Below, piece by piece: positions 10,566 through 60,139 of a stretch of DNA of 64,000 bases. Origin of the DNA: Patescibacteria group bacterium UBA4787 (GTDB lineage Bacteria > Patescibacteriota > Patescibacteriia > UBA2591 > UBA4787); assembly GCA_002402995.1 (NCBI GenBank), contig DHGX01000001.1, positions 12,850-76,849 on the forward strand, in the 5' to 3' direction. Each line of letters opens with the position of its first letter. Position 1 is the stretch's first letter. Made by a program: the position numbers and the translations under genes. A model generated the notes under the pieces. That model was not told where the DNA came from. It saw nothing but the letters and a program-made list of their open reading frames with translations, and did no database searches.

Positions 10566-10705
10566 ACATTTATAATAGCGTTAAATTGCCTTGCAATTAA
10601 AATTTTTTCCATAAACTTGCTATTTAACTTGCCACTGACATTTCCGTCCCAGTCGAACTCGAAACTATGATTTTGAAAAATGGCGGAGGGGGGGGGTATC
10701 CTTCG

Positions 10706-10999
10706 TTAAAACTTCGGATTACCTCGTCTCCCATCCTCGTGATCCTTCTCTAAAGCTACAGAAACCAGTCGTTTATAGGCAAAAGCTTTTCCTGATCCTG
10801 TTTTAAGGTATCGTTCAAAATCTCTTGCCTGTTTTTCTGTTTCGAAACCACCACACCAAATCAACCTCCAAGGACGACGTGGCTTGGTTGCTTTTATTTT
10901 TCCTTCGCTGTGTAATCTTAATCTCTCCTTTAAGTTATTAGTGGAACCGAAATAAAAAATAGGAGATTTTGAACTTGATAAAATATAACAATAATACAT
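10706..10999 (-). CDS. small stand-alone GIY-YIG nuclease family protein (97 aa)
   Basis: MYYCYILSS...IFYFGSTNNLKERLRLH matches the GIY-YIG core. The track ORF 10706..11212 extends over the tRNA, so it is trimmed here to the Met at 10997-10999. Confidence 0.7.
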   Translation of the reverse strand: MYYCYILSSSKSPIFYFGSTNNLKERLRLHSEGKIKATKPRRPWRLIWCGGFETEKQARDFERYLKTGSGKAFAYKRLVSVALEKDHEDGRRGNPKF

Positions 11000-11073
11000 A
11001 TAACCTATTGGCGAGCCATTCCGTAGCGCTCTGTCGCTCGAAGCCATGGAAGCGTAGTGGACTCTAGCGAAGG

Positions 11074-11161
11074 ATGGCGGAAGGGGGGGGATTCGAACCC
11101 CCGATACCTTGCGGTATACGCGCTTTCCAAGCGCGCGCACTAGACCACTATGCGACCCTTC
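11074..11161 (-). tRNA. tRNA-Ser (anticodon GGA), type II with long variable arm, CCA encoded
   Basis: Hand-folded: acceptor GGAAGGG/CCCTTCC, 3-bp D stem, anticodon stem CGCGC/GCGCG with loop TTGGAAA, variable arm ATACC-GCAA-GGTAT, T loop TTCGAAT. Confidence 0.8.
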
Positions 11162-11238
11162 CTTGTTTGCCTCCATTTTACTGGGAATTTTGATTTTTGA
11201 CAAGTTTTTCAACTTTCCAAAAAAAAGAAATATATTAC

Positions 11239-12844: not shown

Positions 12845-12877
12845 AAAAAGGACTGTTAAAAACAGTCCTTTTTTTCT
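12845..12877. terminator. bidirectional hairpin terminator between the Pro-rich ORF and nrdD
   Basis: aaaaaggactgttaaaaacagtccttttttt: a symmetric hairpin with A/T runs on both sides. Confidence 0.6.
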
Positions 12878-33453: not shown

Positions 33454-33535
33454 GCTCCGAACGCTGAACGAAATCTTTACCTCGTAGTTAAACAAAGTTT
33501 ATACTACTGGGGTTCCGCCGCCGCCGAATTCTTGC
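33454..33535 (+). repeat. repeat family D copy 1 (~80 bp, near-exact direct repeat of 37751-37830)
   Basis: gctccgaacgctgaacgaaatctttacctcgtagttaaacaaagtttatactactggggttccgccgc. Contains TTTACC-17nt-TTATACT. Confidence 0.75.
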
Positions 33536-33635
33536 CTTGCCGTAGCCTTGCGTTGTCATTCCGTAGCATTTCGCGAAGGATGGGCAAAGGCAGGTCGTGC
33601 CAGCAAAGCTGGCGCGCCGCTTCTTGTAGATTTTC
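33525..33635 (+). repeat. GC-rich repeat family B copy 2
   Basis: tcgtgccagcaaagctggcgcgccgc hairpin core shared with 8308-8334. Confidence 0.6.
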
Positions 33636-33803
33636 TCTAACCTATACTTGTCGCGACGTTTTTTTAAAAAAACAGCCAATAAAATAAAACACCCGCTTAG
33701 AGCCACAATTGATTTCACGATGACGGTTTGAAAAAGCAACATTTTGGTTCCAAAATCACCCACGAAAAAATCTGGTATTGTCTTTATTTTATTGATTTGT
33801 CGA

Positions 33804-34739
33804 TTAAAGTTCTTTGTCTGGTACGCAACAAGTTCTAGGAGCCGGATCTTTGCATTCAGAAAGTCCAAGAAAACCGCAGCTATGTGTTTCCTCGTAAGAA
33901 CCACAGTCGGTCATCCCTATACTCTTAAACCCCTTGGAACAGGTAGCGCCATTTTGACAAGTTCCTGCCGTACATTTTGTATCATTTACCGCCATACAAC
34001 ACTTTGTTGGTTTTTTCTTGCAACACTTACCAAATCCCCACCAGCATGTTTCACAATCCTCTGCCTCCCCACAATTGGCAGAACCAACATTTTGTGTCCC
34101 CAGAGGACAATCATTGTAAGTGCACATCCCAGTAGCGCAATCGATCACTGGTTTTGAATATTCACAACAAGTGGCAGGCAGGTATTCACAGCATTTTCTT
34201 AAGCCCAAAAAACCACACGAACGGCATTGTTTTTGCGGTTGACAACCAGCTGAACCCTTATTTGTCGCTCCACTCGGACAAACTTTGTCTACGGAGCAAT
34301 ACCCATTACATACTTCCTGAGCAGACGACTCCTGCGGGGCTGTTGACTTGCAACCTTTGGCTTTTACGGCCGCTACTATCCCCGGCATCCTTGATGCCCA
34401 CTTTTCCAAGAACTGGCTTGTTCCCTCACCCCCTCCCAAGCGCTGTGTGTAATATGCCACAAATTCGGCACCGGTCACATTATAAGGCGCTGCCAATTCT
34501 CTAAATTTTTCTTCCGAGATGGATGTTCCTTTGAGACAGACGGAAATGCGTGCCACAATATACAAAGCAATCTCATCTGTCATCTTTCCAGTTGGAGCGG
34601 TCAACAAACTCCCCATCTCTTGTTGGCCAAATAATTGTGTTATATCAAATCCCATTTCGTCAGTGTCTAATTGGGCAAAAACCGTACCGGCAATCAAAAA
34701 TACTACTAAAATCGCAAGAACTAAAAATTTAATTTTCAT
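33804..34739 (-). CDS. secreted cysteine-rich protein (311 aa)
   Basis: Signal peptide MKIKFLVLAILVVFLIAGTVFA. The C-terminal ~180 aa carry more than 35 Cys and a twice-repeated SCGFLGL(R/S)(K/E)C motif. Confidence 0.5.
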   Translation of the reverse strand: MKIKFLVLAILVVFLIAGTVFAQLDTDEMGFDITQLFGQQEMGSLLTAPTGKMTDEIALYIVARISVCLKGTSISEEKFRELAAPYNVTGAEFVAYYTQRLGGGEGTSQFLEKWASRMPGIVAAVKAKGCKSTAPQESSAQEVCNGYCSVDKVCPSGATNKGSAGCQPQKQCRSCGFLGLRKCCEYLPATCCEYSKPVIDCATGMCTYNDCPLGTQNVGSANCGEAEDCETCWWGFGKCCKKKPTKCCMAVNDTKCTAGTCQNGATCSKGFKSIGMTDCGSYEETHSCGFLGLSECKDPAPRTCCVPDKEL

Positions 34740-47858: not shown

Positions 47859-48063
47859 TTTATTATCAAGCGAGCGAGGGAAACGAGAAACGAAGTTTTT
47901 CATTTCCGACCACGCCCGACTTCGCCTTGAGTGATTTTTAAAAACAGTCTTTCTAAACTAATATTTGCGGGGGGGGTTCGGTACTTCGCTATTACTGCGC
48001 GGAACGGCGAACTCAAGGCGGGCGGGGCGAGAGCAGATAACACAGGGTTTAATGCCCTTTATT
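47859..48063 (-). repeat. family A intergenic repeat, reverse orientation, carrying a nested ~80-bp insertion, copy A7
   Basis: Canonical ends (ttattatcaagcgagcgaggg ... cacagggtttaatgccctttatt). Inverted repeats cgccttgagt/actcaaggcg flank an extra segment containing a G8 tract. Confidence 0.7.
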
Positions 48064-59704: not shown

Positions 59705-60063
59705 TGCACTCGCCTCCTTTGTTCCGCCAATTAGCAGATTTGTTTTTAAAAAGAACTTTTCACTTTTATTTAATTATAATCATCTTACTGATTTTGTTAA
59801 GAGGATAATTTTTGCATCTTAATTTGACAGAATTTTTAATTCTGATAATATAAAGATATGAAAAAGATTTTATTAAATAATAACCGCAATAATAATTCGT
59901 TTTAAGCGAAGCGGTTTTTGTTTGATAAAAATTATTCAAATAAAAATCCGCTTTGCGCGGATCTTTTTTATTCCACAGGCTTTTTTGTCTAAATCCTGGG
60001 GTAATTTCAGCCCAAAGCTGATTCGTTCAGGGCGGACAATTGACAATTAATCCTCGACGTTAT

Positions 60064-60139
60064 TCTCCCGTAGTTCAATTGGTAGAACGCTGCACTGTTA
60101 ATGCAGATGTTGGAGGTTCGAGTCCTTCCGGGAGAGCCA
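60064..60139 (+). tRNA. tRNA-Asn (anticodon GTT), CCA encoded
   Basis: Acceptor TCTCCCG/CGGGAGA, anticodon stem CTGCA/TGCAG with loop CTGTTAA, T loop TTCGAGT. Promoter-like TTGACA at 60040. Confidence 0.8.

Follow-up and report, generated by a model that had tools for sequence, protein, structure and literature searches.

A hairpin-bounded GIY-YIG nuclease cassette behind tRNA-Ser in a Patescibacteria genome, probably one copy of a widespread insertion-sequence-like family

The 64,000-nucleotide stretch of DNA analyzed here (positions 12,850 to 76,849 of contig DHGX01000001.1 from Patescibacteria group bacterium UBA4787; called the window below) carries the gene for a 97-aa GIY-YIG nuclease between tRNA-Ser(GGA) and a second copy of the 3' end of that tRNA. 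An earlier note on this DNA had read the arrangement as either a small tRNA-targeted insertion or the scar of a larger integrated element. The first of these readings is the one borne out: the locus is very probably an inserted cassette, made up of a GIY-YIG gene and end hairpins and located at a tRNA 3' end, and it is probably one copy of a widespread family of small units resembling an insertion sequence (IS), inserted after tRNA nucleotide 74. The cassette leaves the tRNA intact. The same unit of ∼330–400 bp is found 3' of different tRNAs, each time with a copy of that tRNA's own 3' strand, and these units apparently form an undescribed and widespread class of tRNA-3'-end hairpin/GIY-YIG cassettes. 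Missing from the earlier reading were the two terminal hairpins, their closure by tRNA bases, and the link to the Ssn nucleases taken up at the end of this text.

Following tRNA-Ser, the unit consists of a left hairpin, the 97-aa GIY-YIG open reading frame (ORF), a right hairpin, and the copy of tRNA positions 61–76. Its parts are:

11075..11162, minus strand: tRNA-Ser(GGA), the target gene, intact and with CCA encoded (ARAGORN; Rfam RF00005, 57 bits, E 5.6e-11)
11075..11090, minus strand: upstream repeat copy, equal to tRNA positions 61-76, CCCCCCCCTTCCGCCA (sequence comparison)
11015..11078, minus strand: left-end hairpin, GCC-ATCC-TTC-GC...GC-TAC-GGAAT-GGC (family alignment A2, pair counts, fold)
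10706..10999, minus strand: ORF of the 97-aa single-domain GIY-YIG nuclease, stop codon TAA at 10706-10708 (Pfam PF01541, E 2.4e-17)
10695..10723, minus strand: right-end hairpin, GGTAATCC-GAAG-TTTTAA-CGAA-GGATACC, an inverted copy of the left end (pairing, compensation test)
10681..10696, minus strand: downstream copy of tRNA 61-76, CCCCCCCCCTCCGCCA, matching the tRNA at 15 of 16 positions

The upstream copy is composed of the 3' strand of the T-stem, the 3' strand of the acceptor stem, the discriminator, and CCA. On the plus strand it reads TGGCGGAAGGGGGGGG at 11075–11090, and the downstream copy reads TGGCGGAGGGGGGGGG at 10681–10696. The downstream copy is followed on its 3' side by TTTTTC and then by the EngB gene. 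The repeat described in the earlier note is therefore real, with the first copy placed there 1 nt too low and the second 10 nt too low. Its identity had been given as 16/17; without gaps it is 15/17 over that 17-mer and 15/16 over tRNA 61–76, where the sole internal mismatch falls at tRNA position 69, a T that is replaced by C in the downstream copy. The 17-mer is not a common G-run motif, as only two sites in the 64 kb match it with three or fewer mismatches (0.09 expected; 0/100 shuffles gave two). One further G8 run is present in the window at 47969–47976. The unit measures 380 bp here, with a family median of 355 bp, and the nuclease ORF is, as originally proposed, the only plausible gene between the copies. 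Because the size and ends of the unit are conserved everywhere, the neighbors of the locus are housekeeping genes (EngB, DEAD-box helicase, DUF218, and NrdD), and no integrase was found near the cassette among the ORFs of the window, there is no support for the scar of a larger integrated element.

The recurrence of this architecture at other tRNA genes carries much of the argument. A word-indexed search returned 457 homologues of the nuclease, and among the best 120 of these the identity to the window protein is 67–77%. Labels taken from the same 120 place the homologues in lineages of the candidate phyla radiation (CPR), namely Jorgensen-, Levy-, Pace-, Komeili-, Moran-, Lipton-, and Portnoybacteria. 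At the level of loci, 462 stretches were confirmed in 185,579 species genomes (one per species), and the best 80 of them, mostly from CPR genomes, were analyzed together with the window, giving the total of 81 used below. A locus was counted as tRNA-linked when a tRNA on the same strand ended less than 400 nt upstream of the start codon. Such a tRNA was present in 52/81 loci, usually 25–60 nt before the start codon, with tRNA-Gln accounting for 21 of these loci, tRNA-Ser for 17, and tRNA-Asn for 10, and with Tyr, Trp, Leu, and Cys represented once each. In 40 of the 52, the 3' end of the locus's own tRNA is repeated exactly over 12 nt or more (median 14), and this repeat is positioned at or just after the stop codon. 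For mismatched pairs of tRNA and locus, the longest common word was at most 10 nt, and 0/430 reached 12. At tRNA sites the repeat is 13–15 nt long and nearly always spans positions 61–74, running from the T-stem 3' strand over that of the acceptor stem and the discriminator to C74. Thus, the architecture recurs at seven or more tRNA species, and the repeat is specific to the tRNA at hand. The relatives are patchily distributed over many different tRNAs, and their ORFs are almost always intact. In several of them a terminator hairpin lies 3' of the fragment.

The ends of the unit are conserved as well. Across the family, the left end runs from C74 through one variable base, N75, into ATCC-TTC-GC-TAAA-GC-TWC-GGAAT-N'-GC, while the right end is the left end inverted, GGTATTCC-GAA-GC-TTTA-GC-GAA-GGATA, followed by the tRNA fragment. 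When the proposed left hairpin was scored on an alignment of 49 left ends (A2), 96.5% of cells were paired and 7/11 pairs had changes on both sides; 0/500 shuffles and no slid register came near the observed values. The pair N75:N' occurs in three states (C-G 22, A-T 15, T-A 11), and the discriminator pair 73:31 in two (G-C 43, A-T 3). Because these pairs covary, the left hairpin is closed by tRNA nucleotides 73–75, G73-C74 plus the variable N75. In the window, tRNA G73, C74, and C75 pair with the element's GGC, and folding predicts this closing stem. At the right hairpin, closure comes from C61-C62 of the tRNA fragment, which pair with GG. The stop codon lies within this hairpin, whose 5' arm encodes the C-terminal G-x-P-K of the nuclease. 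This 5' arm pairs perfectly (7/7 pairs) in 13/20 loci with a variant 3' arm (cross control 0/1497). Both ends are thus conserved hairpins with compensatory changes, completed by bases of the target, and G-U pairs are tolerated in them. An Rfam scan detected no known RNA within the cassette, and the fold of the whole unit (z = -1.9) was uninformative.

The loop of the left hairpin in the window, 11028–11066 on the minus strand, is 39 nt long versus 4 nt (TAAA) in almost all relatives, and the extra sequence folds on itself. Different nested inserts of ∼40 nt occupy the same position in loci L038, L049, and L079. In two further loci, L041 and L042, the left hairpin is separated from the start codon by four tandem units of ∼33 nt (…AGAATTGCATGCCACATTCCCAAGTTT…).

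The protein consists of a single recognizable domain, with the PF01541 match covering residues 1–71. Among 30 sequences the catalytic residues Y5, Y16, R26, and E62 are invariant, and H30 is nearly so (≥90%). The public gene call (P0001, 113 aa) is over-extended at the N-terminus, because 29 homologues start at MYYCYIL/MHYTYIL. No NCBIfam model matched the 97-aa protein. Its best relatives in the PDB are the UPF0213 protein 1ZG2 (30.8 bits, E 2.3e-6), 1YWL (21 bits), and SLX1; the UPF0213 profile matches (1ZG2, 1YWL) are limited to the catalytic core, and the C-terminal YLKTGSGKAFAYKRL block is not common to them. A profile search of 1.84 billion cluster representatives returned 9608 clusters at E≤1e-3, and a cut-off of E≤1e-10 left 1808. 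The clusters are mostly of about 80–130 aa with few outside this range, and their names told nothing about membership in the Ssn family. No relatives were found in IMG/VR viral contigs or in PLSDB plasmids. One distant representative, P0208, had no named relatives, and no cassette ends were present in the 123 nt upstream of it on its contig.

Several features of the family are signs of mobility or of recombination. In a neighbor-joining tree the cassettes cluster by tRNA type with several switches. For example, a Tyr locus (L009) is placed beside an Asn locus (L001), a Gln locus (L019), and the Ser locus of the window, and the L009 repeat matches its tRNA-Tyr perfectly despite the Asn and Gln neighbors. 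One metagenome-assembled genome holds two diverged copies (L021 and L056, 69% nucleotide identity) behind two tRNA-Gln genes, each with its own 16-nt repeat. Partial copies also occur: solo left ends located 3' of a full element (L063, L007), right ends present in duplicate (L016, L017, L036, L040, L061, and others), and mini copies of ∼40 nt without an ORF that sit inside the left hairpin between GCT flanks (L038, L049, L079). The window itself has a solo copy:

33558-33581, minus strand: solo left-end-like hairpin, ATCCTTCGC-GAAA-TGCTACGGAAT (context 33540-33600)

It is preceded by a tRNA-3'-like CCTGCCTTTGCCC, is without a GIY-YIG ORF, and lies inside a doubtful 138-aa ORF (33488..33904); it is possibly a relic or a miniature inverted-repeat transposable element (MITE)-like copy of the same family.

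Recombination is active at the cassette boundaries: populations that carry an identical nuclease diverge exactly there. The identical protein P0028 occurs in three upstream contexts and in two downstream contexts that split right after fragment position 74, and the identical protein P0092 occurs in three downstream contexts that split right after ...GGGGAGC. The identical protein P0010, for its part, was always found in one context. The tRNA fragment directly adjoins an island with a large serine recombinase (Resolvase/Recombinase/Zn_ribbon_recom) in L185 (448–1642) and L188, and this island restores CCA. In its place, other strains with the identical nuclease have DUF4145 or a different sequence. 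Such an island may use the displaced tRNA fragment as an attachment site. A further pair, L007 and L008, was considered as two separate insertions and rejected as such. The element is 99.4% identical between them and the downstream sequence about 98% identical, with upstream sequences unrelated beyond 28 nt. Because the downstream block is common to both, the difference reflects a rearrangement at the left end; in most strains the element lies behind a normal tRNA-Ser(GCT).

A number of observations weigh against the reading of the locus as one copy of an inserted, IS-like family. At about a dozen loci the upstream flank is not recognizable as a tRNA, and what flank and carried fragment have in common there is only a GTTC motif and the last 4–7 nt, so that a fixed target-site duplication alone does not explain these loci. 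No orthologous empty site was found when metagenome contigs were scanned around EngB (80 anchored loci), the comparison that the earlier note had proposed. Most genomes seem to have a single copy, and among the loci compared no two different tRNAs carried near-identical copies; current activity is unproven for these reasons. Where many samples of one species are available, the position of the cassette is stable. The hairpins could equally act at the RNA level. The SRM pattern of the Ssn family (HGTCWYN(0-2)YYVSBRHN(0-5)WNVSBRGN(0-2)RNCYNB) gave 0 matches on both strands of 71 loci (369,600 bases). Finally, GIY-YIG enzymes are hydrolytic nucleases that are not known to have strand-transfer chemistry, and insertion must therefore rely on host functions.

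The loci without a recognizable tRNA have regularities of their own. The GTTC motif of their flanks is T-loop-like and lies about 22–28 nt from the junction, and the last 4–7 nt (CCGC, CAGC, GAGC, or CAAC) always agree with the carried fragment in class. The fragment itself is a canonical tRNA 3' strand; those of L016 and L023 are 14/14 identical, while the elements are 82% identical. In L035 (2740–2960) and L053 (2730–2950) the tRNA (Leu or Ser) is intact and keeps its trailer, and a partial copy of the 3' half of the same tRNA, fused to the left end of the cassette, lies 150–200 nt downstream. tRNA-like remnants lie upstream in L014, L005, L041, and L070. In L050, L051, and the P0092 population a group I intron of about 490 nt interrupts the tRNA-Asn in front of the cassette. 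Because of this intron the tRNA-Asn of L050, L051, and L180 is missed by ARAGORN; the intron of L180 (803–1122) matches the full Rfam model RF00028 at E 6.9e-5 with 28 bits, which is below the 50-bit gathering score, and the 5' half of the tRNA, TCCCCGGTAGCTCAGCGG, sits 573 nt upstream. The loci without a tRNA flank may represent tRNA copies that have decayed or been rearranged, or short homology to the carried fragment may have guided insertion there. Microhomology-driven insertion at non-tRNA sites was weakened as a candidate, since several of the loci turned out to be intron-containing tRNAs, tRNA-like remnants, or partial tRNA copies. As separate observations, one tRNA-Asn gene thus bears both an apparent intron and a 3' cassette, and L023 has a group I intron match at 1107–1320 (49.4 bits).

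Around EngB, the contigs with the closest EngB relatives (89–91% identity) have a rearranged upstream region with no tRNA-Ser upstream, and contigs with an identical EngB come from the same strain only and are all occupied. In L126 and L128, where EngB is 62% identical, tRNA-Ser lies 373 nt upstream of EngB and no cassette is present, which is weak evidence. For the window, the predicted empty site is ...GGTTCGAATCCCCCCCCTTCCGCCATTTTTCAAAATCATAG. Three independent assemblies of the same strain (Logan contigs L168–L170) break 703, 566, and 293 nt upstream of EngB, inside or just upstream of the tRNA-Ser/cassette region; these breaks could result from the G/C run, from the repeat, or from population heterogeneity at the site. 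A segment homologous to the tRNA-Asn region of the window (59823–60136) lies about 1.8 kb upstream of EngB in L081 (35–272) and L147 (1003–1239) and about 49 kb from it in the window, so a large rearrangement separates these close relatives. The tRNA-Asn(GTT) of that region (60064–60139, plus strand), ending in ...CCTTCCGGGAGAGCCA, has the CC-N10-GC features of the targeted tRNAs and no cassette, which makes it a potential unoccupied target in the same genome.

How such a cassette might be inserted can be proposed only tentatively, by analogy with the Ssn nucleases, and we hold the specific scheme of nicking and repair to be somewhat less probable than not. The nuclease would read both end hairpins in single-stranded DNA (ssDNA), each completed by target bases, and would nick the DNA outside them at a distance of a few to a dozen bases, which gives 60|61 for the sense strand and 74|75 for the other. 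These cut sites are predicted because 12 nt of the repeat precede a TTC-type hairpin on each strand, so that cleavage at one constant distance on the 5' side of each hairpin foot would land there. The 14-nt stagger between them would correspond to the repeat, and 74|75 to the point at which the population variants diverge. Host repair or replication would then copy the cassette into the tRNA 3' end, regenerating the 61–74 repeat, with the carried 14-nt tRNA fragment and the hairpin-closing bases choosing the target through base pairing or short homology. A need for CC at 61–62 and [G/A]C at 73–74 would account for the preference for tRNA tails and for the strict orientation. A bolder version, which we regard as rather doubtful, is that the cassettes are autonomous transposable elements using nothing other than the ∼97-aa GIY-YIG ssDNA nuclease, with pairing-guided target choice and host-completed insertion. 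The subterminal bases would in that case pair with tRNA 73–75 and 61–62, and the 14-nt fragment would be a portable homology guide.

Among the rival explanations, the one nearest to the insertion of an IS-like GIY-YIG cassette is that the unit is a terminal-inverted-repeat (TIR) transposon or MITE-like unit that enters by a fixed 14-bp staggered cut in CC-N10-GC (tRNA 61–74), creating an ordinary target-site duplication without homology guidance and mobilized by its GIY-YIG protein or, in trans, by a transposase not seen here. The ends are indeed inverted repeats, the repeat is tightly 13–15 nt and always spans 61–74 at tRNA sites, it matches the new tRNA perfectly after a species switch (Tyr, L009), and the nested ∼40-nt mini copies without an ORF are flanked by GCT. 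However, neither the unit nor its surroundings contain a transposase, of the DDE type or any other. In addition, the fragment differs from the flank save for the last 4–7 nt in the non-tRNA loci, L004, and L048, and it stays canonical where the flank does not, as the 14/14 match of L016 and L023 illustrates. This explanation overlaps the favored one, from which it differs only in the origin of the duplication, and we consider it unlikely.

A domesticated gene that is linked to the tRNA and has lost its mobility, with hairpins serving as RNA processing or stability signals (e.g. RNase III sites) that would separate the mRNA from the tRNA and with the repeat as an old relic, would fit the single copy per genome and the stable position across samples, the plausible co-transcription with the tRNA, the tolerated G-U pairs, and the almost always intact ORFs. 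Perfect 14-nt repeats in most loci are nonetheless unexpected for a neutral relic, many different tRNAs are occupied in a patchy distribution, there are tandem, solo, and nested copies along with rearrangements at the boundaries, and the Ssn relatives act on ssDNA and not on RNA (PMC11893778); this explanation is accordingly improbable. Still less probable is site-specific integration by a recombinase acting in trans, for example the integrase of a phage or of an integrative and conjugative element or the host Xer, with the 14-nt segment as the att core and the GIY-YIG gene as cargo. An intact tRNA, an insert, and a displaced 3' fragment do reproduce the topology of integrase-borne islands, and the fragment of one population borders on a large serine recombinase island that restores CCA. 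Against this, neither in the window nor at most loci does the cassette have an associated recombinase, each of the seven or more tRNAs would require a newly specified att core, and a cargo gene is not expected to keep covarying hairpins that overlap its own stop codon. The idea that two G-runs resemble each other by chance, or that a large island has been excised and left a scar, was refuted and retains a negligible probability: although the repeat is G/C-rich and of low complexity, the motif count in the window (2 versus 0.09 expected) and the tRNA-specific repeats argue against it, the same relation holding in 40 other loci with tRNA ends that are not G-rich, and the size of the unit is constant.

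Two more features of the locus bear on its expression and annotation:

11175..11203, minus strand: promoter-like site TTGTCA-17-TAAAAT, upstream of the tRNA (consensus scan only)
10706..11212, minus strand: artefactual six-frame ORF of 168 aa that crosses the tRNA, not for annotation (ORF list, homologue starts)

Because there is a promoter-like site 5' of the tRNA and the consensus scan found no promoter-like or terminator-like site between tRNA-Ser and the GIY-YIG ORF, the nuclease gene is likely co-transcribed with the tRNA by read-through from the tRNA promoter. The 168-aa ORF had already been flagged as an artefact in the earlier note, and it does read through the tRNA. Elsewhere in the family, LOOT RNA (RF03000) was detected near two cassettes, at L014 2670–2790 (minus strand, 84 bits, about 115 nt from the cassette end) and at L037 4614–4740 (minus strand, 72 bits, about 1.3 kb from the cassette end).

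Hairpin-flanked single-domain GIY-YIG nucleases (Ssn) were first described in 2025, when an IS-like layout was noted and no insertion footprint was shown. The window locus and its relatives supply such a footprint, namely a target at tRNA nucleotide 74, a 14-nt tRNA-specific repeat, and hairpins at both ends that are completed by bases of the target, which covary with the element. It is now possible to test whether these nucleases mobilize their own genes, whether they cut at the predicted sites (60|61 and 74|75), and whether specificity can be re-programmed through 2–3 subterminal bases or through the carried 14-mer. If the cassettes were autonomous elements, Ssn-type hairpin-nuclease units would be true mobile elements and would amount to a minimal, reprogrammable ssDNA-targeting system. 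For the annotation of CPR genomes, the cassettes mean that spurious ORFs can run through tRNAs and that tRNA 3' fragments can be mistaken for att sites, and they mark tRNA tails as hotspots of structural variation.

Of the known systems, IS200/IS605 elements move by the covalent chemistry of an HUH Y1 transposase, have ends that are not inverted repeats, and make no target duplication. The cassettes resemble them in having subterminal hairpins, which IS200/IS605 elements recognize as ssDNA, in reading target bases by pairing, and in using a fixed short insertion motif. Here tRNA 73–75 pairs with N'GC of the element, with covariation in three states, and C61-C62 pairs with GG. They differ in that GIY-YIG is the only protein detected by the Pfam scan, the ends are inverted, and there is a 14-nt repeat. 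Islands and prophages that integrate at tRNA genes use integrase att sites in the T-loop or at the 3' end. The cassettes have in common with them the intact tRNA, which stays functional, the insert, and the displaced 3' copy, whereas the insert is only ∼380 bp, no tyrosine or serine recombinase lies between the repeats, and many tRNAs are used. Classical IS carry terminal inverted repeats and, at every copy, a target-site duplication of fixed length. The cassettes have inverted ends and 13–15 nt repeats at tRNA sites, and at roughly 12 loci the two sides have only 4–7 nt in common. Homing enzymes have separate DNA-binding domains, cut double-stranded DNA, and come without terminal hairpins or target duplication; the 97-aa protein is a single domain without a DNA-binding domain. 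Free-standing GIY-YIG homing genes (T4 SegB in a tRNA cluster, PMC2330249; I-TevI) are nevertheless similar in placing a nuclease gene beside conserved RNA genes and in a spread that presumably relies on host repair. In CPR rRNA genes, GIY-YIG ORFs occur in insertions that are neither group I nor group II introns (PMC11270868). The host group is the same and the targets are again structured-RNA genes, though rRNA rather than tRNA tails, and these insertions may be related to the cassettes. Literature searches on GIY-YIG proteins in connection with tRNA, target-site duplication, CPR, or SsnA gave no description of a GIY-YIG cassette specific to tRNA tails.

The Ssn family (Chenal et al. 2025, Nat Commun 16:2388, PMC11893778) comprises single-domain GIY-YIG nucleases of ∼94 aa whose genes are flanked by hairpin repeats (NTS/SRM). 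The hairpin is bound in ssDNA only, and cleavage is strand-specific, a few bases upstream in a variable flank; the authors likened the NTS-ssnA-NTS layout to an insertion sequence (PMC11893778). Their paper contains no mention of tRNA and describes no target duplication (PMC11893778). The hairpin repeats are not amplified here, the window having two ends and one solo copy, and a tRNA 3'-end target, a 14-nt duplication, and hairpin closure by target bases, all seen in the cassettes, are not described for Ssn. On the other hand, the proteins agree in size (∼94–97 aa) and in being a single domain, PF01541 being the only one in the 97 aa, and Y5, Y16, and E62 are spaced like Y6, Y17, and E64, the residues mutated in SsnA (PMC11893778). 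The gene likewise lies between hairpin-forming repeats of 20–50 nt in inverted orientation, giving the same IS-like layout, and the hairpin core ATTCC...GC-loop-GC...GGA(A)T resembles the Ssn NTS ATTCCCGCG-MAV-GCGGGAAT. By size, single domain, and flanking hairpins, Ssn therefore appears to be the closest described system to the tRNA-tail cassettes.

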